Position numbers and translations under genes: made by a program
The notes under the pieces: model-generated
The model's database searches: none
Told to the model about the DNA's origin: nothing
What the model saw: the letters and a program-made list of their open reading frames with translations, nothing else
Part shown: piece by piece, positions 1 through 63,590 of the stretch
Position numbering within the stretch: the stretch's first letter is position 1
Layout: each line of letters opens with the position of its first letter
Sequence record: OR880647.1
Length of the DNA stretch: 63,590 nt
Strand: one strand, 5' to 3'
From: Escherichia phage ECP2304

Positions 1-441
1 GAATAATTTATTCCTACTTGATAGAATAATGGAATCGGTACTCCAGAGCGCAAAAACCTAAAACTTTCAGTCAACAGACTAAAAACGGATAGAAACTAAA
101 AGTTAATAAGTAATAACATAAATATATATAAAATAAGGATTTATTAGTAATGTATATAGTACCTATTGGTATTATTTGAATGTTTTTGGGTCATTGTTAA
201 AAAGTCCCAAAACTCACAAAAAGTGAAAGAATACAATTCGTGACAGGATTGTTAATGGAATAAGGTGTATGGATATACAGTATTATTCCAGATTCCGGAA
301 TAATTGGAATAATGGAATAAATTATTGAACTATTGTGATCGGAAGGTATATCAAGCTATAATGCGCTTAATCGCGGGATATTGGAGGAGGACTTTATTGC
401 GCGGTTAACCGGACCAGTAGGAGGGCTGGCCCGGAAGTAGT

Positions 442-768
442 TTAGAGCTGTACAGGTGTGAAGTGGGCTAGCGTATCGTCGGACATAATACCCGACAGTT
501 TTTCGTTTACCCAGTCGGACCAAATGCTATCCGGTTCCTGGCGGTGCACAAACCAGATTTCGGATGTGCCTTCTTTGCGCATCGGTTGCACTTCTGCAAG
601 GAACTTGTCCTGCATAAGGCGCGTGAAGCAGACGCTGGTCATTGGAACCGGCTTTTCGTCTTTATTGTAATAAGGGACCAATATTTTATTTCCGAAGTCT
701 GCAACTTCATAAACTGTTCCTTTGCGAAGGCCTCTGATGTCAGTGTAAGAGCGGATGAACTTTTTCAT
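442..768 (-). CDS. hypothetical protein (108 aa)
   Basis: ATG start, clean ORF in minus-strand gene string inside repeat. Confidence 0.5.
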   Translation of the reverse strand: MKKFIRSYTDIRGLRKGTVYEVADFGNKILVPYYNKDEKPVPMTSVCFTRLMQDKFLAEVQPMRKEGTSEIWFVHRQEPDSIWSDWVNEKLSGIMSDDTLAHFTPVQL

Positions 769-770
769 AT

Positions 771-947
771 TTATTTCCTTACGAACACAGAGCCGACGAA
801 TAATGTTGATTGAGTTGCAGCTTGCTCGATTAATTCGCCAACAAGCTGGGACTGCGTCAGAGGTTTAAGGCCTTCTTTGGCGCGAGCTTCATTTACACGA
901 CGTTGAAGGTCTTTTAGGTATTGAGTTGCGAAACTATCTAATTGCAT
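771..947 (-). CDS. small hypothetical protein (58 aa)
   Basis: ATG at 945-947 preceded by AAGGA RBS; stop 771-773; below track size cutoff. Confidence 0.4.
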   Translation of the reverse strand: MQLDSFATQYLKDLQRRVNEARAKEGLKPLTQSQLVGELIEQAATQSTLFVGSVFVRK

Positions 948-996
948 CTTCTTATCCTTAGGGCTCCCGCAGAAGCCCGTTGAATGTGGTTATCGA

Positions 997-1146
997 CTAT
1001 AACGCTGCAAACATAAGCAGACGAATATTAACTGAAGTTTGGCTATTAAAGTCTTGACATTCTTTGATAATCTCTTCTTCACTTTTACCACTAAGTTTAG
1101 AATATTCTGTGATTGCTTGTTTTAATACAGAATCAAAATTGTTCAT
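997..1146 (-). CDS. small hypothetical protein (49 aa)
   Basis: ATG at 1144-1146 preceded by AAGGAGG RBS; translated by hand to TAG at 997-999. Confidence 0.45.
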   Translation of the reverse strand: MNNFDSVLKQAITEYSKLSGKSEEEIIKECQDFNSQTSVNIRLLMFAAL

Positions 1147-1156
1147 TTTATCCTCC

Positions 1157-1771
1157 TTATGCGTCCAGACCGTTGTATTTGCGCCAGGCGTAGAACTGAA
1201 TGGCGACAGTTGTTCCGTTGTAAGAAGGCATTGCAGCTTTCATCTCTTTCAGCGCCGGCGTGCGGCCCAGTTCCTTCAGAAGCTTGTCACCCATTGCCCA
1301 CACTTCGGCAGTTTTTCCTTTAAGGGGCTTGCGAGCGCCATTTTTGAAATCGCAGCGAGCAGCTTTTGCATCCTGTTTTGGAGCGGCAGCTTTTGGCTCT
1401 TCAATTTTGATTTCAGAAACCTGCGTGGCAGCTTTTGCGTGTTTCATATCTTTCTCTTCCTCCTGCTCCAAAGCTTTGAGGCAGCTTTTGACGATTTCCG
1501 GATTTACCATCGGGCGCAGTACCGAGGCGCTAGCAGCTGGAGCGGCGGTCGGTGCTGGGGCTTTCTGCTCCGGCTTTTGAGCTTTTTCGTGATCGCGCAG
1601 CACCTGAAGGACTTCCTTTTCGACGATGTAAAAACCGATATCGTCCTGATGGATAAGCTGTTCGTGTGCGTCGCGTGCAACCTGGCCCCAGCGAGTTTTC
1701 AGAGCGCGGCGTGCATTCGTTTTCATGGTGTAGCGCATTTTGTCCTGTTCGCGGTGAGTTACTTTAGACAT
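1157..1771 (-). CDS. hypothetical protein (204 aa), basic N-terminus and Ala/Pro-rich linker
   Basis: ATG at 1769-1771 preceded by AAAGGAG RBS; in-frame with track ORF 1157..1816. Confidence 0.6.
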   Translation of the reverse strand: MSKVTHREQDKMRYTMKTNARRALKTRWGQVARDAHEQLIHQDDIGFYIVEKEVLQVLRDHEKAQKPEQKAPAPTAAPAASASVLRPMVNPEIVKSCLKALEQEEEKDMKHAKAATQVSEIKIEEPKAAAPKQDAKAARCDFKNGARKPLKGKTAEVWAMGDKLLKELGRTPALKEMKAAMPSYNGTTVAIQFYAWRKYNGLDA

Positions 1772-1844
1772 GGTATAGCTCCTTTCGTTAATGTTAGTTT
1801 GCTTATTACTGCCCACCGTAATGATGAGCAGTGTATAAGAAAAC

Positions 1845-2093
1845 TTACTGCACGATTGCTACGAAATCGGCGGTTGCGATATCCATGCTTGCAAACGCTT
1901 TGACGGTGTAGCTGGTATCTGCCGCGGCGTTGAAGTCGCTCAGGAACTGTTGTACCGCGTGCTCATGGTTGAGCATTACGTCTACATTGCAGTCCCAGCT
2001 ATAAACCTTGCGCTGACCGAAACCTTTAACTGCAATACGCGCGCCTTTGGTGTTGGTTGGTGCCAAAAATTTGGTGACGATAGAAGTAGCCAT
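1845..2093 (-). CDS. hypothetical protein (82 aa)
   Basis: ATG with GAGGA RBS. Confidence 0.55.
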   Translation of the reverse strand: MATSIVTKFLAPTNTKGARIAVKGFGQRKVYSWDCNVDVMLNHEHAVQQFLSDFNAAADTSYTVKAFASMDIATADFVAIVQ

Positions 2094-2166
2094 GATGTAA
2101 TCCTCGTTTTGTTTAAGTTGACTTATTATTGCCCAGTCAGATCAACTAGGCAAGATATAAATCAGC

Positions 2167-2391
2167 TTATTTAACCATCAAGGCCCATCTTTTATAGCCG
2201 TTCAGCTCCATTCTATGACCGTGGTCGTTGCAGTAACGTTGGATATTATTAAAGTCGTTATCGTTCATATCGCTGACGTCAATATTAAAATAGTTGCGCT
2301 TTGCAGGTGTAACGTATTGGGATAACTGCATTGAGTACAGATGTTCAATGTTGTCGATAATAGCTTGCTGAACTTTAGTGATAGTAGCCAT
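2167..2391 (-). CDS. hypothetical protein (74 aa)
   Basis: Internal ATG at 2389-2391 preceded by GGAGGTG RBS; track ORF extends to 2451. Confidence 0.5.
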   Translation of the reverse strand: MATITKVQQAIIDNIEHLYSMQLSQYVTPAKRNYFNIDVSDMNDNDFNNIQRYCNDHGHRMELNGYKRWALMVK

Positions 2392-2781
2392 GATACACCT
2401 CCTAATGTGGTTAAGCAGTATTGCTTTGTTGAAGTAATAATAGCCTTGCATCGTGATATTGAATAGGCCAAACGTGCTATTTTGATATTGTTTTGCATCT
2501 AGTGAAAATCATGCTTGTATCGCATATTTAGCACTAATGGCCTAACTAACATCACACGATCTGGTCTACGCGCGTGCATACATACATATAAGGAGTGCCG
2601 GACAGGATCGGACCGACCAGGGGCGCTCAACCGTCTCTGTCCGTCCTGTAAGCTGGTCCCCGGACTGGTCCAAAATATTTTTATAAAAAGATGCAAAAAG
2701 GTGTAGACATATGATCAATCTAACCCTACTATATACACATACCGCAAGGGTACTACAAATTAACTTAAAGGGGTTTACATC

Positions 2782-2985
2782 ATGTCTATTCGTAGCGTTA
2801 TCTGTGTAATGGTTGCAAACAATAATTTTGGTTTCGTAGAAGGTGCAGAGTATAAAATGGATCTTAAGACTCGTTGCATTATTAAAGGTGAAGAGGAATG
2901 GCGTGCAGTGGTAGAAGATCGCGGCGATATCTACATCTATAGTTCTGATACAATGAAAACTATTGCCGTCTTCGAATTTAACTAA
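2782..2985 (+). CDS. hypothetical protein (67 aa)
   Basis: ATG with AAAGGGG RBS; first plus-strand gene after divergent intergenic region. Confidence 0.55.
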   Translation: MSIRSVICVMVANNNFGFVEGAEYKMDLKTRCIIKGEEEWRAVVEDRGDIYIYSSDTMKTIAVFEFN

Positions 2986-3053
2986 GCTAACTTATACAAT
3001 GGGCATTAGTACAGTGCCCATTAATAAGCTAACTAATTATAACGAGGTGTATT

Positions 3054-3239
3054 ATGTCTACGAACACTGTGAAGTCTGTAAATAATAGCAACAGAACATT
3101 TAAAGTTATCTATTATGGCGAATATATTGGAGACGTTACAGCTCCCAGCCGCATCGCTGCGGAAGACTTCGTCCGTACAGAGATGGAGCTTGGAATCGCC
3201 GATTTTGCAGCCATTATCGAACTGGTAGAGGTATTCTGA
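3054..3239 (+). CDS. hypothetical protein (61 aa)
   Basis: ATG with GAGGTG RBS. Confidence 0.5.
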   Translation: MSTNTVKSVNNSNRTFKVIYYGEYIGDVTAPSRIAAEDFVRTEMELGIADFAAIIELVEVF

Positions 3240-3240
3240 T

Positions 3241-3381
3241 ATGCAACGCAAATACACGCTTACACGCGCACAGCACGCGTTATTGATTGCAGCTATGCGC
3301 GCAGAATATGCAGTACACGGCTGGCATAGCGCCATGATGCGAGGTAAAAGCATATATGCAGACATATGCTCGCAAGAATAA
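3241..3381 (+). CDS. small hypothetical protein (46 aa)
   Basis: TGAtATG coupling to upstream gene; hand-translated to TAA at 3379-3381. Confidence 0.35.
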   Translation: MQRKYTLTRAQHALLIAAMRAEYAVHGWHSAMMRGKSIYADICSQE

Positions 3382-3944
3382 CGCACACAGCAGCACCACA
3401 GCGAGCTAAAGCTCAAAGGTAATGGTAATGCATTACCAACACACAATAAGCACGCTGTACCCAGCAAAGCGGCGCTAATTTCAACACTCACAGGCTGTAC
3501 GTTAACGCGTACGGCCTGCTCTGCTATATGCACGCCATGTATATAGCCAGCTCACAATGCACATCAATATAATTACGAATGAAATGGATTCGTCTGGAAG
3601 AATAACAATTCTTACAGTCACAGACCGGTCCAATGAGCCAACTCATAGACCCCACCTAGGATCATCAGGGTACTAATAATCACCCGAGGGCCCTTATCCA
3701 TCCTGATAGTAAGTGCTTGCCTAAATCTTACCCATCACTTTACTATCCACATACATCCATGACCCCACCTACCTTCTTTTTGAATATATTGCGCTCATCC
3801 TTTCTAAATATATGGATTTTGGTAGTAAATTCTGAGTCGTCAACGTATAATCCGTCTTGTAGCTGCCCCATAGCTACCATCTTTAAGCGGATGCAACCAA
3901 TTTCTATCAATTCTCACCAGTTTTAGAGCATCAAGGAGGTATTT

Positions 3945-9345: not shown

Positions 9346-9903
9346 ATGAACGGGGCAAGTCAAGAGCAATATGATCGTGACTGGACGAACTATATCCAGT
9401 ATGCAAATAGCTTGTCCGCTGACGAGATGGCAATACGTGACAAAGTTGTTGCTGAGTATATGTTCGACTACAATTGGACTAACGCTTGCATGAGATGCGG
9501 GTTCAATGCTATGTTTGCACAGGAGCTTGGCCAACGCTTTGCCACGGACTGTTACGTTCGATGGAAGCTCAAGGAGATTGAAAGATCCCGTGTTCAACGT
9601 ACTTCTGAGCAAGCTAACATTGAAGCAGACCTAGAGCGTCAGCATATCATTGAAGCATTAAAACGTGAAGCTCATTATACAGGACCGGGATCTTCTCAAG
9701 CTGCTAGAGTAGCCGCATTGGGCAAGCTTGCACAAATTTATGATTTGGATGCGCCCAAGAAGGCTAAAATTGATGTTACTAACAGAGGCGGCGTAATGAT
9801 AGTCCCTGCTGTAGCAAATATTGACGAATGGGAAAAAAATGCATCCGAGTCTCAACAACGACTAGTTAAAGAGACTGAAGATGGAGCTAAACCGACAACC
9901 TGA
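9346..9903 (+). CDS. putative terminase small subunit
   Basis: 185-aa ORF immediately upstream of and overlapping terminase large subunit. Confidence 0.45.
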   Translation: MNGASQEQYDRDWTNYIQYANSLSADEMAIRDKVVAEYMFDYNWTNACMRCGFNAMFAQELGQRFATDCYVRWKLKEIERSRVQRTSEQANIEADLERQHIIEALKREAHYTGPGSSQAARVAALGKLAQIYDLDAPKKAKIDVTNRGGVMIVPAVANIDEWEKNASESQQRLVKETEDGAKPTT

Positions 9904-48338: not shown

Positions 48339-48760
48339 TTACTGCTGCCACGGCGGGACTGCTGCTTGTGCCGGATGGGGTTCAGCTTGCTGCTGTGGCT
48401 GCGCTTGCTGCTGTGGTGCTGCTGCCTGGCCCGGCTGTGCTACCTGCTGCGCCCACGGCTGCTGAGCTGCTTCCGGTGCTACTGGCTGTTGTACCGGAGC
48501 TTGCTGAACTGGCTGCTGCGGCGCTGCGTTTTGAGCAGGATTATCCCACGGCTGCGGTGCTGCGTTCTGCCACGGTTGAGCTGCTGCTGCGCCCTGCTGC
48601 GGTGCTGGTTGCTGCTGCACAGGCGGCTGAACTGGCTGCTGTTGCTGTACCGGAGCTTGCTGCTGTACAGGTGCTTGCTGTTGCTGAGCAAACGGGTTAG
48701 CTGCTGGCTGCTGTGGCGCTGCGCCCGGGAAAGTTGGCTGCTGTGCTGGCGCACCTGCAC
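48339..48760. repeat. CAG/CTG-rich low-complexity repeat tract
   Basis: Reiterated GCTGCTG/CTGGCTG units; creates spurious plus-strand ORFs. Confidence 0.7.
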
Positions 48761-55910: not shown

Positions 55911-58247
55911 TTATTTGCTTAAGTCCTTGAAAACACTCTCAATTGACTCGTCTATATACCATCCCAATCCCCTGAAATTACGCTTCAACGCATCTTCACG
56001 CGTGACTGGAACGAGCGCACCCATGTCTACAAGTTGCTTGATGGTAAGGTCTGTTGCAGTACCTGCTCCCATCCTGTGATTCTTGAATGCTGCTAGACCG
56101 TAGGTTCTGCGTGTGATAGTTGCCTTTGGAATAATACCGTCAACGCGCAGCTCCTTACGATCACATGCAATCTTACCGCCAAGATAGTCTTTGCAGACCT
56201 GACAGATAGCCTTCACACGTGTTTCGTCATCACCGCCAATAGTACCTTTTTCCCATGCGTTGATCATAATGTCCTGACCGTGCGTAACAAAATCTACCGC
56301 CCATTGCATGTGGTTTGGTTGCACCACAGGATTGATCCAGTTTTCCCCCACCGCTAACAGAGAAGCAAGACGCAAAGCTTTAAGGTGTGCACGGTTCCAA
56401 GGCTGACGGATTGCTTCGTCTTTGGTTGCGTTAATGTGTTCGTCACATAACAGGTTAAACTCCCGTTCAATCCTTTCAGCTTCAGGACTTAACTGGACTG
56501 TGACAGTTTGAAACTTCGCCATTGTTACTAAGGTGTGGTTAACAAGATGGCACACCATGTCCTTTAACTGCTGGGGCATTATAATCTCAGGGTTTTCGTT
56601 TGCAGGAACTCGATCTCCTTCATATTGCACAATGTGGAAACGGGACAAGAAACCGTCTTCCATCATTTCACGGGTTAATGCTTCAAAGAAAGTGTCCGGT
56701 GTTGTTTCTCCCAGCACGCTGAACGCTACCCCTTCCATCGTTTTGGTATTATTAGCCTTATCAGAATATCCAATACCGCCAACAACATCCATTGCGCCAG
56801 ATTTTTGATATACATCTGTGATAGTTTGCTTCAGAGTATAGTTTGCAGTACCGGGCTGAGCTGTTGCCATACCTTTGATGGTTTTGCCAAACTCTCCGTT
56901 AATGTTCACAAACGAACTATGATCCGCAAAACTTTTACGCAATGCAGGACCGGACGCATAGTTAGTCATGTCTACAAATTCATGAACTTGCGGTAATTGC
57001 TCCCCTACTTGCTTGCAAATATAGCTGGGTCCGGCGTGAAGCATCTCTTTACCCACACCTGAGCGAGCGATAAGCACAAAGTAACCGTTCAGCCCTGTGT
57101 TGGTGATAGTATTCCATACCTTACCGCACACACCAGACAGAAATGCTAACGATGCGGTGATTGCAATTTCTTTCACGGGACGTTGCGATGCTTTGTAGAT
57201 GTACTTCGCAAGCTCCCCAGCAAGCCCCGGCGGCCACTCAATAGCGGTTGCATCAATAGACGTACTTTCTGCAACTACTATTTGACCGGAAGGACTAACT
57301 GTGGTTACAGGCATCTCTGTTACTTGCTGCATTGTGCTGTGTGCGGCTTGCATACGGGCAGCATAATCTCGCGCCAGCGCCGCTACGTTTTCCTGGGCAA
57401 TGCGCTCACGCTCCATGCGACCGCGGCACATCCGCAAACAACGGTCAATATGAACATTGTTCTTATTAGCCTTCTCACGTTTGCCCAGTGCACTGTAACG
57501 GAACAGACGGCGACATTGCTCATTACTTTCTGTATAGAATGCATACATAGAAATAAGAGCAAGGTCTGCTTCAGACTGGGAAGGGAATCCCATTTCAACC
57601 CATTCACCATTGAATAGGCGTGCATACTTATCCCCGTTGTCCGCTTCAAGCGCGCGCTGGTGAATAGTTGCATCGTCTTCTACCGGATCTTTTTCTACCA
57701 GTTCAATTTCATATGTCTTGCGCTGAAGATCAATTTCATTCACAAGCATAGTAAGATAATGATCGCGTTCGGCAACTGGTTTGTTATAGACAGGATTACC
57801 CGTGCAGATAATAAAACGCTCCTGACTATAAACTTCGACACCATCACGTCGACGACCTTTGCCGATGTTTCCTCTTAACCACAGGTGAACACCCAAGCCT
57901 GAGCGACTTACTTCGGTGTAAGTATCGAACGCGGTCATGATCTGTTCGAAGCGGCGCAACTGTTCCGGCGTCGTGTGCTTCTTGGGATCTGGTTCATTGG
58001 TTGCGTTCTTTACATCCAGGTCGATGCAGGTGAACGGGTCTTGTGCAGTAAGCACGAAGCCTATATAAGGTTTGTTGAAATGAGCAGCACAACCTTTGGC
58101 AGCTTCAAACGTCATAAGCATATCCGGATCGGTAACGTCCGCTGCCATCAAACGTCCGATATCGTTGTCCCATATTAATGGGCGTTTATCTTCACCAGCA
58201 ATAGCCCACTGATTGTATTGTTTAATTTCATCAGGAAATAATTTCAT
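55911..58247 (-). CDS. DNA primase-helicase (PrimPol-like N-terminus, SF3/D5-like helicase C-terminus)
   Basis: 778 aa; acidic DxD-type motif TCIDLDV, GVHLW; Walker A ARSGVGKE; ATG at 58245-58247. Confidence 0.6.
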   Translation of the reverse strand: MKLFPDEIKQYNQWAIAGEDKRPLIWDNDIGRLMAADVTDPDMLMTFEAAKGCAAHFNKPYIGFVLTAQDPFTCIDLDVKNATNEPDPKKHTTPEQLRRFEQIMTAFDTYTEVSRSGLGVHLWLRGNIGKGRRRDGVEVYSQERFIICTGNPVYNKPVAERDHYLTMLVNEIDLQRKTYEIELVEKDPVEDDATIHQRALEADNGDKYARLFNGEWVEMGFPSQSEADLALISMYAFYTESNEQCRRLFRYSALGKREKANKNNVHIDRCLRMCRGRMERERIAQENVAALARDYAARMQAAHSTMQQVTEMPVTTVSPSGQIVVAESTSIDATAIEWPPGLAGELAKYIYKASQRPVKEIAITASLAFLSGVCGKVWNTITNTGLNGYFVLIARSGVGKEMLHAGPSYICKQVGEQLPQVHEFVDMTNYASGPALRKSFADHSSFVNINGEFGKTIKGMATAQPGTANYTLKQTITDVYQKSGAMDVVGGIGYSDKANNTKTMEGVAFSVLGETTPDTFFEALTREMMEDGFLSRFHIVQYEGDRVPANENPEIIMPQQLKDMVCHLVNHTLVTMAKFQTVTVQLSPEAERIEREFNLLCDEHINATKDEAIRQPWNRAHLKALRLASLLAVGENWINPVVQPNHMQWAVDFVTHGQDIMINAWEKGTIGGDDETRVKAICQVCKDYLGGKIACDRKELRVDGIIPKATITRRTYGLAAFKNHRMGAGTATDLTIKQLVDMGALVPVTREDALKRNFRGLGWYIDESIESVFKDLSK

Positions 58248-58248
58248 C

Positions 58249-58773
58249 TTATACACCCAATTTGTTACAACCGTGGTTCTTGTGAAAATTGTAATCGGTT
58301 AATGCTTTACTTACAGCCATTTGTGCATCTTCAAAAGTATCGTATACTCCAAGATATTTTGAAGTCCCGTCGACGCCTATACGAGCTTGCCATTTATTAG
58401 TACCTTTGTGAAATGTAACTCCATTTACTCCAGAGGTATTATTGCGTTTCTTACTTTGATTTCGTCCATTTTCTTTGTGAGTAACAAGACGCAAGTTTTC
58501 AATGCGGTCGTCGTAACGAATGTGATTAATATGGTCTATTTCCATACCTTCCGGTATTGGACCATTATGCATTTCCCATACTATGCGTGAACGGCGATAT
58601 AGTTTGCCTTTAAGAGCAATACGAACATATCCTTTATCCGTAAGCGTACCTGCAACGCAACCTTCTTTCGCTCTTGCGCCCATATCTTTCTTCCAATACA
58701 ACACTCCTTCATTATATTGGAATATTACCGCCCATTGTGGGAAAGCTTTAATTTCAGCGGGAAACAGTTCCAT
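58249..58773 (-). CDS. HNH homing endonuclease with AP2 DNA-binding domain
   Basis: HNH motif EIDHINHIRYDDRIENLRLVTHKEN; AP2-like SGVNGVTFHKGTNKWQARI. Confidence 0.7.
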   Translation of the reverse strand: MELFPAEIKAFPQWAVIFQYNEGVLYWKKDMGARAKEGCVAGTLTDKGYVRIALKGKLYRRSRIVWEMHNGPIPEGMEIDHINHIRYDDRIENLRLVTHKENGRNQSKKRNNTSGVNGVTFHKGTNKWQARIGVDGTSKYLGVYDTFEDAQMAVSKALTDYNFHKNHGCNKLGV

Positions 58774-58782
58774 TGCAAATCC

Positions 58783-59028
58783 TTACTTAGAAGCTAGTTT
58801 TAACATGGATATAATTGCCGCCTTAATATTATCAACTGTGTCCCGAGCTTCTCGCTTGGACGCAAATGTGTTAACATATTCCACGCTATCCAAAACTTTA
58901 ACGTATAAGCGATAGCCTTCACCTTCCACATGTTCAACAACATAACCGTTGATGTCTAAAGACTTGCCAAAATAGCAACATGAAGATTTTGAATTAACCT
59001 GTTTCATGAAAGGATCAATTGTAGCCAT
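58783..59028 (-). CDS. hypothetical protein (81 aa)
   Basis: ATG 59026-59028 after GGAGGA; track ORF extends to 59076. Confidence 0.45.
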   Translation of the reverse strand: MATIDPFMKQVNSKSSCCYFGKSLDINGYVVEHVEGEGYRLYVKVLDSVEYVNTFASKREARDTVDNIKAAIISMLKLASK

Positions 59029-59302
59029 AAATCTGTTTCCTCCGCCATTCTTCATATGCTGAATTATTTGCATCATATACTTCGCAAGCGTCTTTCATGC
59101 TGTCATACAGTCCAAGGAAAGTTCGCCTTGTTTCCCCGCCTGCGTCTACCCATGTTAATCGGGCGAGCCATTTACCAGTTTTGTGATCGAAAGTAACACC
59201 CTCACGCCCGCTTACATTCTCCCGAGGCACTCGAGGTTTCCGGCGTGCAAGCCCGCGACCTTTGAAATTACTGCCCGGGACAGTCCTGCACTTACGACCC
59301 AC
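59015..59302 (-). CDS. AP2-domain DNA-binding protein
   Basis: AP2-like SGREGVTFDHKTGKWLARL; non-ATG start (GTG near 59302 after GGAGG, or TTG at 59320); start uncertain. Confidence 0.4.
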   Translation of the reverse strand: MGRKCRTVPGSNFKGRGLARRKPRVPRENVSGREGVTFDHKTGKWLARLTWVDAGGETRRTFLGLYDSMKDACEVYDANNSAYEEWRRKQIYGYN

Positions 59303-59507
59303 GACCAACCTCCGACACAATCCGACCAGCGTGCAACATTAAGACAGGCTCTGCAACTTCGCGCACGTAAACGTAAACGTTAGCAATTTTAACTTCGCCC
59401 GGCAGCTTGCCGCGCAGCGAACACAACTTGCGACGGCTAAGACCGAAGCGCTTTTCAATTTCTGATGTGGTTATGTATTTAAGATCAAATTCTTTTTGAC
59501 AGTCCAT
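59292..59507 (-). CDS. hypothetical DNA-binding protein (71 aa), first gene of minus-strand arm
   Basis: Strong RBS TAGGAGGTAGGT then ATG; putative HTH segment. Confidence 0.5.
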   Translation of the reverse strand: MDCQKEFDLKYITTSEIEKRFGLSRRKLCSLRGKLPGEVKIANVYVYVREVAEPVLMLHAGRIVSEVGRGS

Positions 59508-59613
59508 ACCTACCTCCTAACAGCACTATACACAATCCATAGTAATGCATCCACAATTATTCCACCTGAAGTTATGATGTGAGAGGATTGTTAATATATA
59601 ACCACATGTGATG

Positions 59614-59704
59614 GAAAGTTTTGGGTAGGAATAGTTGGTGCTCCACAGTTTGCGCAATGTGACCGAAAGTTTTGTGAGTTTTGCGAAGTTTTGCGAAGTT
59701 TTGT
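59614..59704. repeat. Array of GA(A)AGTTTTG direct repeats in right-end non-coding region
   Basis: Five copies including tandem GCGAAGTTTTGCGAAGTTTTG at 59681-59701. Confidence 0.7.
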
Positions 59705-59761
59705 GGTGCCACTGTTGCTAAAAACTTTAATAAAAACAATAAGTTGGTGCAGTAAGTTTTT

Positions 59762-59787
59762 GCGTTTTGGGGTAAAACGCATTTTTT
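59762..59787 (+). terminator. terminator-like hairpin in right-end non-coding region
   Basis: GCGTTTT-GGGGT-AAAACGC followed by ATTTTTT. Confidence 0.4.
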
Positions 59788-60336
59788 ACCCTAACACCCA
59801 AATCCCGACTGTTAGTAAAAAACGTATATAAATCAATAGCATAGATACTAAATGAATAGTGATTGGAATGGGTAGAAATCCAAATGATGGAAGTGGAATA
59901 ATTTATTCCTACTTGATAGAATAATGGAATCGGTACTCCAGAGCGCAAAAACCTAAAACTTTCAGTCAACAGACTAAAAACGGATAGAAACTAAAAGTTA
60001 ATAAGTAATAACATAAATATATATAAAATAAGGATTTATTAGTAATGTATATAGTACCTATTGGTATTATTTGAATGTTTTTGGGTCATTGTTAAAAAGT
60101 CCCAAAACTCACAAAAAGTGAAAGAATACAATTCGTGACAGGATTGTTAATGGAATAAGGTGTATGGATATACAGTATTATTCCAGATTCCGGAATAATT
60201 GGAATAATGGAATAAATTATTGAACTATTGTGATCGGAAGGTATATCAAGCTATAATGCGCTTAATCGCGGGATATTGGAGGAGGACTTTATTGCGCGGT
60301 TAACCGGACCAGTAGGAGGGCTGGCCCGGAAGTAGT

Positions 60337-60663
60337 TTAGAGCTGTACAGGTGTGAAGTGGGCTAGCGTATCGTCGGACATAATACCCGACAGTTTTTCG
60401 TTTACCCAGTCGGACCAAATGCTATCCGGTTCCTGGCGGTGCACAAACCAGATTTCGGATGTGCCTTCTTTGCGCATCGGTTGCACTTCTGCAAGGAACT
60501 TGTCCTGCATAAGGCGCGTGAAGCAGACGCTGGTCATTGGAACCGGCTTTTCGTCTTTATTGTAATAAGGGACCAATATTTTATTTCCGAAGTCTGCAAC
60601 TTCATAAACTGTTCCTTTGCGAAGGCCTCTGATGTCAGTGTAAGAGCGGATGAACTTTTTCAT
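60337..60663 (-). CDS. hypothetical protein (repeat copy of 442..768)
   Basis: Identical duplicate in right repeat. Confidence 0.5.
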   Translation of the reverse strand: MKKFIRSYTDIRGLRKGTVYEVADFGNKILVPYYNKDEKPVPMTSVCFTRLMQDKFLAEVQPMRKEGTSEIWFVHRQEPDSIWSDWVNEKLSGIMSDDTLAHFTPVQL

Positions 60664-60665
60664 AT

Positions 60666-60842
60666 TTATTTCCTTACGAACACAGAGCCGACGAATAATG
60701 TTGATTGAGTTGCAGCTTGCTCGATTAATTCGCCAACAAGCTGGGACTGCGTCAGAGGTTTAAGGCCTTCTTTGGCGCGAGCTTCATTTACACGACGTTG
60801 AAGGTCTTTTAGGTATTGAGTTGCGAAACTATCTAATTGCAT
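60666..60842 (-). CDS. small hypothetical protein (repeat copy of 771..947)
   Basis: Identical duplicate. Confidence 0.4.
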   Translation of the reverse strand: MQLDSFATQYLKDLQRRVNEARAKEGLKPLTQSQLVGELIEQAATQSTLFVGSVFVRK

Positions 60843-60891
60843 CTTCTTATCCTTAGGGCTCCCGCAGAAGCCCGTTGAATGTGGTTATCGA

Positions 60892-61041
60892 CTATAACGC
60901 TGCAAACATAAGCAGACGAATATTAACTGAAGTTTGGCTATTAAAGTCTTGACATTCTTTGATAATCTCTTCTTCACTTTTACCACTAAGTTTAGAATAT
61001 TCTGTGATTGCTTGTTTTAATACAGAATCAAAATTGTTCAT
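60892..61041 (-). CDS. small hypothetical protein (repeat copy of 997..1146)
   Basis: Identical duplicate. Confidence 0.45.
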   Translation of the reverse strand: MNNFDSVLKQAITEYSKLSGKSEEEIIKECQDFNSQTSVNIRLLMFAAL

Positions 61042-61051
61042 TTTATCCTCC

Positions 61052-61666
61052 TTATGCGTCCAGACCGTTGTATTTGCGCCAGGCGTAGAACTGAATGGCG
61101 ACAGTTGTTCCGTTGTAAGAAGGCATTGCAGCTTTCATCTCTTTCAGCGCCGGCGTGCGGCCCAGTTCCTTCAGAAGCTTGTCACCCATTGCCCACACTT
61201 CGGCAGTTTTTCCTTTAAGGGGCTTGCGAGCGCCATTTTTGAAATCGCAGCGAGCAGCTTTTGCATCCTGTTTTGGAGCGGCAGCTTTTGGCTCTTCAAT
61301 TTTGATTTCAGAAACCTGCGTGGCAGCTTTTGCGTGTTTCATATCTTTCTCTTCCTCCTGCTCCAAAGCTTTGAGGCAGCTTTTGACGATTTCCGGATTT
61401 ACCATCGGGCGCAGTACCGAGGCGCTAGCAGCTGGAGCGGCGGTCGGTGCTGGGGCTTTCTGCTCCGGCTTTTGAGCTTTTTCGTGATCGCGCAGCACCT
61501 GAAGGACTTCCTTTTCGACGATGTAAAAACCGATATCGTCCTGATGGATAAGCTGTTCGTGTGCGTCGCGTGCAACCTGGCCCCAGCGAGTTTTCAGAGC
61601 GCGGCGTGCATTCGTTTTCATGGTGTAGCGCATTTTGTCCTGTTCGCGGTGAGTTACTTTAGACAT
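61052..61666 (-). CDS. hypothetical protein (repeat copy of 1157..1771)
   Basis: Identical duplicate. Confidence 0.6.
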   Translation of the reverse strand: MSKVTHREQDKMRYTMKTNARRALKTRWGQVARDAHEQLIHQDDIGFYIVEKEVLQVLRDHEKAQKPEQKAPAPTAAPAASASVLRPMVNPEIVKSCLKALEQEEEKDMKHAKAATQVSEIKIEEPKAAAPKQDAKAARCDFKNGARKPLKGKTAEVWAMGDKLLKELGRTPALKEMKAAMPSYNGTTVAIQFYAWRKYNGLDA

Positions 61667-61739
61667 GGTATAGCTCCTTTCGTTAATGTTAGTTTGCTTA
61701 TTACTGCCCACCGTAATGATGAGCAGTGTATAAGAAAAC

Positions 61740-61988
61740 TTACTGCACGATTGCTACGAAATCGGCGGTTGCGATATCCATGCTTGCAAACGCTTTGACG
61801 GTGTAGCTGGTATCTGCCGCGGCGTTGAAGTCGCTCAGGAACTGTTGTACCGCGTGCTCATGGTTGAGCATTACGTCTACATTGCAGTCCCAGCTATAAA
61901 CCTTGCGCTGACCGAAACCTTTAACTGCAATACGCGCGCCTTTGGTGTTGGTTGGTGCCAAAAATTTGGTGACGATAGAAGTAGCCAT
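61740..61988 (-). CDS. hypothetical protein (repeat copy of 1845..2093)
   Basis: Identical duplicate. Confidence 0.55.
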   Translation of the reverse strand: MATSIVTKFLAPTNTKGARIAVKGFGQRKVYSWDCNVDVMLNHEHAVQQFLSDFNAAADTSYTVKAFASMDIATADFVAIVQ

Positions 61989-62061
61989 GATGTAATCCTC
62001 GTTTTGTTTAAGTTGACTTATTATTGCCCAGTCAGATCAACTAGGCAAGATATAAATCAGC

Positions 62062-62286
62062 TTATTTAACCATCAAGGCCCATCTTTTATAGCCGTTCAG
62101 CTCCATTCTATGACCGTGGTCGTTGCAGTAACGTTGGATATTATTAAAGTCGTTATCGTTCATATCGCTGACGTCAATATTAAAATAGTTGCGCTTTGCA
62201 GGTGTAACGTATTGGGATAACTGCATTGAGTACAGATGTTCAATGTTGTCGATAATAGCTTGCTGAACTTTAGTGATAGTAGCCAT
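62062..62286 (-). CDS. hypothetical protein (repeat copy of 2167..2391)
   Basis: Identical duplicate. Confidence 0.5.
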   Translation of the reverse strand: MATITKVQQAIIDNIEHLYSMQLSQYVTPAKRNYFNIDVSDMNDNDFNNIQRYCNDHGHRMELNGYKRWALMVK

Positions 62287-62676
62287 GATACACCTCCTAA
62301 TGTGGTTAAGCAGTATTGCTTTGTTGAAGTAATAATAGCCTTGCATCGTGATATTGAATAGGCCAAACGTGCTATTTTGATATTGTTTTGCATCTAGTGA
62401 AAATCATGCTTGTATCGCATATTTAGCACTAATGGCCTAACTAACATCACACGATCTGGTCTACGCGCGTGCATACATACATATAAGGAGTGCCGGACAG
62501 GATCGGACCGACCAGGGGCGCTCAACCGTCTCTGTCCGTCCTGTAAGCTGGTCCCCGGACTGGTCCAAAATATTTTTATAAAAAGATGCAAAAAGGTGTA
62601 GACATATGATCAATCTAACCCTACTATATACACATACCGCAAGGGTACTACAAATTAACTTAAAGGGGTTTACATC

Positions 62677-62880
62677 ATGTCTATTCGTAGCGTTATCTGT
62701 GTAATGGTTGCAAACAATAATTTTGGTTTCGTAGAAGGTGCAGAGTATAAAATGGATCTTAAGACTCGTTGCATTATTAAAGGTGAAGAGGAATGGCGTG
62801 CAGTGGTAGAAGATCGCGGCGATATCTACATCTATAGTTCTGATACAATGAAAACTATTGCCGTCTTCGAATTTAACTAA
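62677..62880 (+). CDS. hypothetical protein (repeat copy of 2782..2985)
   Basis: Identical duplicate. Confidence 0.55.
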   Translation: MSIRSVICVMVANNNFGFVEGAEYKMDLKTRCIIKGEEEWRAVVEDRGDIYIYSSDTMKTIAVFEFN

Positions 62881-62948
62881 GCTAACTTATACAATGGGCA
62901 TTAGTACAGTGCCCATTAATAAGCTAACTAATTATAACGAGGTGTATT

Positions 62949-63134
62949 ATGTCTACGAACACTGTGAAGTCTGTAAATAATAGCAACAGAACATTTAAAG
63001 TTATCTATTATGGCGAATATATTGGAGACGTTACAGCTCCCAGCCGCATCGCTGCGGAAGACTTCGTCCGTACAGAGATGGAGCTTGGAATCGCCGATTT
63101 TGCAGCCATTATCGAACTGGTAGAGGTATTCTGA
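62949..63134 (+). CDS. hypothetical protein (repeat copy of 3054..3239)
   Basis: Identical duplicate. Confidence 0.5.
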   Translation: MSTNTVKSVNNSNRTFKVIYYGEYIGDVTAPSRIAAEDFVRTEMELGIADFAAIIELVEVF

Positions 63135-63135
63135 T

Positions 63136-63276
63136 ATGCAACGCAAATACACGCTTACACGCGCACAGCACGCGTTATTGATTGCAGCTATGCGCGCAGA
63201 ATATGCAGTACACGGCTGGCATAGCGCCATGATGCGAGGTAAAAGCATATATGCAGACATATGCTCGCAAGAATAA
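63136..63276 (+). CDS. small hypothetical protein (repeat copy of 3241..3381)
   Basis: Identical duplicate. Confidence 0.35.
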   Translation: MQRKYTLTRAQHALLIAAMRAEYAVHGWHSAMMRGKSIYADICSQE

Positions 63277-63590
63277 CGCACACAGCAGCACCACAGCGAG
63301 CTAAAGCTCAAAGGTAATGGTAATGCATTACCAACACACAATAAGCACGCTGTACCCAGCAAAGCGGCGCTAATTTCAACACTCACAGGCTGTACGTTAA
63401 CGCGTACGGCCTGCTCTGCTATATGCACGCCATGTATATAGCCAGCTCACAATGCACATCAATATAATTACGAATGAAATGGATTCGTCTGGAAGAATAA
63501 CAATTCTTACAGTCACAGACCGGTCCAATGAGCCAACTCATAGACCCCACCTAGGATCATCAGGGTACTAATAATCACCCGAGGGCCCTT

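Follow-up and report, generated by a model that had tools for sequence, protein, structure and literature searches.

The genome of Escherichia phage ECP2304 begins inside an AT-rich non-coding stretch in which the heptamer GGAATAA recurs in both orientations, and the question raised by this locus is what such an array at a genome end is for. The first-pass annotation of the sequence had suggested a packaging-recognition site or a replication origin. Seuratviruses and other Queuovirinae have drawn interest because of the 7-deazaguanine in their DNA and in connection with phage therapy; to our knowledge, no description exists of their origin, early control region or genome ends. In the literature, nothing was found on the GGAATAA motif, and on Seuratvirus termini only the inferred end and terminal repeat of phage 9g, placed within an untranslated region of 473 bp that has divergent promoters (PMC4276943). 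The RefSeq record of 9g has been re-oriented.

The window analyzed here (the whole stretch of 63,590 bp) is the complete linear genome of ECP2304, a Seuratvirus (Queuovirinae). Its nearest public records are the E. coli Seuratviruses GottfriedDienst, KS_W4, SLUR25, CAjan and Seurat (90-94% identity), and the deposits of most of these nearest relatives comprise 56-61 kb, with the terminal repeat not written out. Genes on the plus strand occupy ~3.9 to 33 kb and include those for the terminase proteins TerS and TerL, while genes on the minus strand run from ~59.5 kb down to 33 kb, with the replication operon first. In the right-hand copy of the terminal repeat, and in any concatemer, positions 1-441 are continuous with 59508-59895. 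The resulting joint non-coding region of ~830 bp (59508-60336) is bounded by the last leftward gene of the direct terminal repeat (DTR; stop at 442/60337) and by the replication operon, whose first gene starts at 59507. Positions 1-441, initially treated as a unit, therefore represent only half of a larger control region that is divided by the DTR boundary. A corresponding gap of 630-830 bp is present in every relative; the gap was aligned for 19 relatives, and the wider comparison covered 34 relatives or records. The DTR and the GGAATAA sites are as follows.

1-3695 and 59896-63590: direct terminal repeat of 3,695 bp, copies exactly identical.
59895-59909: full 15-bp palindrome GGAATAAtTTATTCC (perfect 7+1+7), spanning the unique/DTR junction in the right-hand copy.
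1-13: truncated inverted repeat GAATAA-t-TTATTC (6+1+6) at the reported left physical end.
23-40, plus strand: degenerate copies AGAATAA-TGGAATCG, fully conserved in Salmonella phage STP-SP5.
257-263, plus strand: GGAATAA copy, not conserved (GGAATAT in most close relatives).
283-289, minus strand: inverted GGAATAA copy, reading TGGAATAAT on the minus strand.
297-320, plus strand: head-to-tail GGAATAA triplet with 9- and 8-bp spacing, immediately preceding a conserved promoter.
59557-59563, minus strand: GGAATAA copy; it supplies the extended -10 (TGGAATAAT) of a leftward promoter predicted for the replication operon at 59556-59583.

Six exact copies of GGAATAA were found in positions 1-320, at 8-14 (minus), 257-263 (plus), 283-289 (minus), 297-303, 306-312 and 314-320 (all plus), which agrees with the original count of at least six in both orientations in an AT-rich non-coding 330 bp (GC content of 1-330, 28%; no ORF of at least 40 aa). 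The tandem triplet, previously placed at 298-324, is real and starts one base earlier, at 297. The palindrome described at 1-13 exists there as a 6+1+6 inverted repeat, but it is a truncated form: base 59895 is a G that completes the 15-bp GGAATAAtTTATTCC, so the reported genome end lies one base inside the palindrome. Outside the triplet, the copies are inverted or irregularly spaced. Together they form two clusters, at -1 to 40 and 257-320, on either side of an AT-rich core (51-230). There is no copy between 321 and 5176, and none within 1.4 kb of the right DTR boundary.

Enrichment against shuffled background, a check proposed in the first-pass annotation, was confirmed. In positions 1-330, six copies were observed against 0.16 ± 0.40 expected, and 0/2000 dinucleotide shuffles reached six; after correction for any 7-mer the p value is ~0.02. 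For the complete junction (59508-60336), with eight copies, the corrected p value is ~0.005. Genome-wide, 28 copies compare with 9.5 expected, an excess that stems from the two copies of the junction; most of the GGAATAA words outside the junctions are ribosome binding sites or stop-start overlaps (translational coupling), e.g. GGTGGAATAATG. Comparison by eye with the ArgR box, DnaA box, IHF site and lacO led us to reject each of these, as GGAATAA misfits them in spacing or sequence.

The motif is shared by the window, nine E. coli records and, as the tenth relative, Salmonella phage STP-SP5 (group A). GGAATA is present in 8-10 copies in the E. coli members and in seven in STP-SP5, and the GGAATAAtTTATTCC palindrome is conserved in 10/10 group-A relatives, STP-SP5 included. 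The non-coding region of STP-SP5 is only 75% identical to that of the window, yet the palindrome, the inverted copy at 283 and the triplet are kept. Motif positions are 93% identical between the two phages, compared to 66% for the rest of the non-coding region (Fisher p = 5e-6). With the copy at 257 excepted, the array is on this comparison under purifying selection. A chance accumulation in functionless, low-complexity sequence might be considered, given that the region is 72% AT and that the copy at 257 varies among close relatives. It is, however, hardly credible in view of the shuffling result, the selective conservation of the motif positions and the existence of parallel arrays in sister lineages.

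These parallel arrays were found to the left of position 51. There, in DTR positions 1-50 and the unique flank, the relatives carry versions that cannot be aligned with one another, each with its own iterated word: 6-10 copies of CACTAT in groups B1 and B3, and 11-12 copies of CCCTAT in group B2 (CAjan, Seurat, SLUR76). Each word lies far above shuffles (one representative phage per cassette type), and an inverted pair stands ~35-95 bp left of the core in every group. To the right of the core, no such array was found in groups other than A. The triplet is present in group A and in Dru_SM1, a recombinant with a B1-type left part and the group-A right-hand cluster; unrelated sequence occupies this place in the other groups. 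In SA126VB (B1), one CACTAT lies within the spacer of an annotated promoter.

The replacement of the array in close relatives bears directly on packaging, for which two further features are needed.

9346-9903, plus strand: small terminase subunit TerS, nearly invariant across motif groups.
3697-3709, plus strand: TCCATCCTGATAG, just beyond the right DTR boundary; also conserved in Hafnia phage yong3.

If the array were a packaging signal, TerS would recognize the concatemer at GGAATAA and the left-end cut would be made there. The reported physical end, one base inside GGAATAAtTTATTCC, would suit such a role, as would the winged-helix (wHTH) fold of the 71-aa protein described below, a fold shared with the N-terminal domain of lambda-type TerS and the TerS chain of the Rpp complex 6hn7. 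There is also a known parallel: Dunn and Studier are said to have described, in 1983, the SRL/SRR heptamer arrays beside the terminal repeat of T7, whose function is unproven. As in T7, arrays of a 7-bp word adjoin a DTR boundary in ECP2304. Unlike those of T7, with which they share no sequence similarity, they lie inside and across the left boundary only, and close relatives with the same terminase carry other words in their place. Across the E. coli Seuratviruses, TerS identity does not fall below 98.4%, whichever motif is present, and this includes the phages with CACTAT or CCCTAT arrays instead of GGAATAA; ~20 records have no GGAATAA at all in the region. This near-invariance in the absence of the word disfavours the packaging-recognition role put forward in the first-pass annotation.

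The right DTR boundary, devoid of GGAATAA, offers the different conserved word TCCATCCTGATAG. In most relatives, homology with the window picks up again at precisely position 3697 and also begins at DTR position 51, which makes the end segments of the repeat mosaic hot spots; both DTR boundaries thus coincide with mosaic breakpoints. In yong3, which has a 3,424-bp DTR as deposited, the right boundary is at the homologous position (…|RTCCATCCTGATAGTA), and the left boundary likewise leaves 50 bp to the core, a stretch unrelated to the corresponding 50 bp of the window. The sequences conserved in all groups, i.e. the core (from 51 bp inside the DTR) and TCCATCCTGATAG, are therefore better candidates for the terminase target than GGAATAA, and a packaging function of the array is quite unlikely. 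A direct repeat, GACCCCACCTA, flanks the right DTR boundary at 3648-3658 and 3761-3771 (~113 bp apart) and could be part of a terminase signal.

The second suggestion of the first-pass annotation, an origin, was examined through the remaining elements of the control region and the replication gene next to it.

51-230: AT-rich core, up to 90% AT at ~93-150, conserved in all relatives; putative origin unwinding element.
59617-59769, plus strand: AGTTTTG repeats outside the DTR; putative primase-helicase iterons.
55911-58256, minus strand: primase-helicase (prim-pol, NrS-1-type HBD, DUF3987), whose C-terminal part defines two alleles.
333-362 (= 60228-60257), plus strand: sigma70-like promoter TTGTGA-N18-TATAAT, kept in all relatives.
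367-434, plus strand: two conserved hairpins just past the stop of the minus-strand gene 442-768 (z = -3.3).

Besides GGAATAA, the region holds a second iterated word. The window has six exact copies of AGTTTTG; at 59668-59703, four stand in tandem at intervals of 9-10 bp, and inverted words of this type flank the core at 59-65 and 208-214. The second word is of two types: groups A and B1 have AGTTTTG, and B2, B3 and yong3 have GTTTAT. The primase-helicase falls into the same two classes: allele I is at least 97.7% identical to that of the window throughout groups A and B1 (90% in STP-SP5), and allele II is ~76% identical in B2 and B3 (63% in yong3). The allele matches the type of core and of AGTTTTG/GTTTAT word in 34/34 records. 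A comparison of the window with Seurat shows 100% identity in primase residues ~25-300, against 53-93% in the helicase part (windows of 40 residues) and no more than 38-55% in the final ~120 residues. The pairing of primase and core is thus unbroken across a swapped cassette and an identical primase segment, and we read it as functional matching. The core and the AGTTTTG repeats probably constitute the origin, and we read the matching as recognition of the origin repeats by the C-terminal region of the primase-helicase. In P4 alpha and SaPI Rep, the replicase C-terminal region recognizes the origin. The NrS-1-type HBD was rejected as the determinant of AGTTTTG versus GTTTAT, the segment being 100% identical between the alleles.

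GGAATAA might itself act as the origin iteron, bound by the primase-helicase as initiator, which would then open the adjacent AT-rich core. The position of the clusters, on both sides of the core and directly upstream of the replication operon, is what such a role would predict, and the layout of iterons, unwinding element and iterons resembles the SaPI and P4 origins. The word does not, however, follow the initiator: groups A and B1 have the same primase-helicase, yet carry GGAATAA and CACTAT, respectively, and it is the AGTTTTG/GTTTAT word that goes with the primase allele. Moreover, groups other than A lack such an array right of the core. We regard this role as unlikely. What stands of the earlier suggestion is that the array adjoins a probable origin; the GGAATAA copies do not track the primase-helicase allele, as the AGTTTTG-type repeats do.

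Promoter and hairpins make up a second conserved block at ~318-440, the promoter standing first and pointing into the 3' end of a convergent gene. An Rfam search of the junction including the hairpins gave no match. The two-hairpin stretch, annotated as a terminator in the record of SA126VB, may specify a ~70-nt small or antisense RNA or act as a bidirectional terminator.

The co-variation of the GGAATAA-type words was then considered at the level of the small genes next to the control region.

59292-59507, minus strand: 71-aa MerR/excisionase-type winged-helix (wHTH) protein, phrog_11967; first gene of the replication operon.
59015-59320, minus strand: AP2-like small protein of 101 aa, specific to group A; weaker candidate binder.

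Of the cassette genes, only that for the wHTH protein (65-73 aa) is found in every group. Group-A wHTH proteins are 89-100% identical to that of the window (tblastn). The STP-SP5 protein is 92% identical over 64 aligned residues (83% over the full length), with an identical helix-turn-helix region and the same GGAATAA. In B1 and B3, which share CACTAT, identity is 72% and the recognition helices are similar. The B2 protein, with the motif CCCTAT, is 57-64% identical to the others. Four wHTH alleles thus correspond to three motifs, and the same or a similar helix goes with the same motif, a correspondence confounded by physical linkage. The right-hand cluster of Dru_SM1 is an exception to the match, and the co-variation may be a matter of linkage because the left cluster adjoins the wHTH gene. 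The 71-aa protein has no Pfam match, and a PDB sequence search gave nothing useful. A search for homologous proteins found only five close relatives, and a scan of IMG/VR with the wHTH alignment identified five loci, two of which are distant, GC-rich and without a comparable intergenic region.

Two other cassette products were considered. The AP2-like protein is present only in the nine E. coli group-A records. STP-SP5 has just a 30%-identical AP2-like segment and identical motifs, and the AP2-like protein was downgraded as a binder for this reason. Its ORF may be a relic of a homing endonuclease of the HNH-AP2 type. A gene for such an HNH-AP2 endonuclease lies at 58249-58773 (minus strand), between the primase and the small cassette genes, and is missing from the corresponding place in GottfriedDienst. 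Group B phages carry an extra gene, gp62 (248-271 aa, phrog_27223), between the wHTH gene and the gap (positions 926-1708 in L004 and 91-837 in L014). Its alleles follow the motif too; those of the CCCTAT groups share 40-45% identity with those of the CACTAT groups. The gp62 product has no Pfam match and no similarity to any group-A cassette protein.

On the best reading, to which we give a probability of roughly 50%, GGAATAA is the binding site of the 71-aa winged-helix regulator beside the origin. The analysis established the enrichment and conservation of the motif, the joint allelic replacement of motif and protein, the fold of the protein and the near-constancy of TerS among E. coli phages with different motifs; the binding, the identity of the binder and the effect of binding are inferred. 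The array would be a cassette-specific set of sites, separate from the AGTTTTG origin repeats, comprising the inverted pair at the DTR boundary, the triplet and inverted copy 250-320 bp inside, and one site over the operon promoter. On these the 71-aa protein may assemble in the way that Cox, Xis and BldC do on their repeats, and the bound protein would either regulate transcription of the operon or near the origin, or shape the origin DNA. Such a control element is of an uncharacterised but ordinary kind.

P2 Cox, lambda Xis and Streptomyces BldC are small winged helices of the MerR/excisionase type that polymerize head-to-tail on short repeats. The 9- and 8-bp spacing of the triplet may fit repeats about one helical turn apart; the other copies are inverted or irregular in spacing. 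In contrast to those systems, the ECP2304 sites extend across 650 bp to the left and right of the core and include an inverted pair, and the protein heads a primase-helicase operon and has no family match at the sequence level. As ECP2304 is a lytic phage, there is also no integrase or attachment site here. P4-like satellites and SaPI/PICI elements have AlpA-primase modules with adjacent origins, in which repeats flank an AT-rich stretch. ECP2304 resembles these modules in the small wHTH gene upstream of the primase-helicase, in the adjoining origin and in the repeat type that matches the divergent C-terminal part of the replicase. It differs from them in having two repeat systems, AGTTTTG going with the primase and GGAATAA with the wHTH cassette, and in being a full lytic phage in which the region is divided by a terminal-repeat boundary.

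The copy over the operon promoter raises a further explanation, namely that the array consists of clustered sigma70 extended -10 boxes (TGGAATAAT) that load the host RNA polymerase. The full TGGAATAAT form is present in 4/8 junction copies, the one at the expected operon promoter may be a genuine -10, and the equivalents in yong3 are GGTATAAT-like, with one preceding a gene. However, in the palindrome it is the heptamer that is kept, while the TG and the final T vary (CGGAATAAT in STP-SP5, TGGAATAAA in most of group A). Plus-strand copies have no plus-strand gene downstream, and a promoter layout would not comprise six copies in both orientations within 65 bp. An array of -10 boxes is for these reasons very improbable.

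The winged-helix protein might also be assigned a role beyond regulation, with this protein, rather than TerS, specifying the left genome end. It would bind the inverted GGAATAA, CACTAT or CCCTAT pair 50 bp from the origin core and thereby bring the conserved terminase to this pair, or else a nick coupled to replication. If this were true, a lytic phage would contain an adaptor similar to Rpp or to a TerS N-terminal domain, and end formation would be coupled to the origin. We believe this to be very doubtful, and retain the regulatory site set as the preferred reading.

It should be noted that the DNA of these phages is modified. In CAjan, DpdA activity results in dPreQ0 replacing G in GA and GGC (PMC10484667). 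Each GGAATAA copy contains one GA step, so virion DNA would carry one 7-deazaguanine per site, on one strand only. Recognition of the sites by a protein could be affected by this modification.

The analysis provides a testable map of the locus, consisting of the probable origin, an exchangeable regulator/site cassette, the promoter with two hairpins, and both DTR boundaries. It accounts for the large 'empty' intergenic region in annotations of these genomes; engineering or re-orienting a genome at this point would split the control region.

Several minor observations were made in the course of the analysis. AGGATTGTTAAT occurs twice, at 59585-59596 near the operon promoter and at 246-257 beside the right-hand GGAATAA cluster. 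The copy at 59585-59596 is embedded in ATGTGAG(A/C)GGATTGTTAATATATAACCACAT, a sequence that is partly palindromic, is conserved in STP-SP5 and may be another operator. The DTR contains nine small ORFs (442-3381), divergently arranged around 2452-2781, whose products gave no Pfam matches and no informative PHROG function; the block recalls the pre-early genes in T5-type terminal repeats. Finally, imperfect repeats of the CTGGCTGTTG type are present at 48359-48641 in a minus-strand gene, in a local GC-rich stretch (55%).
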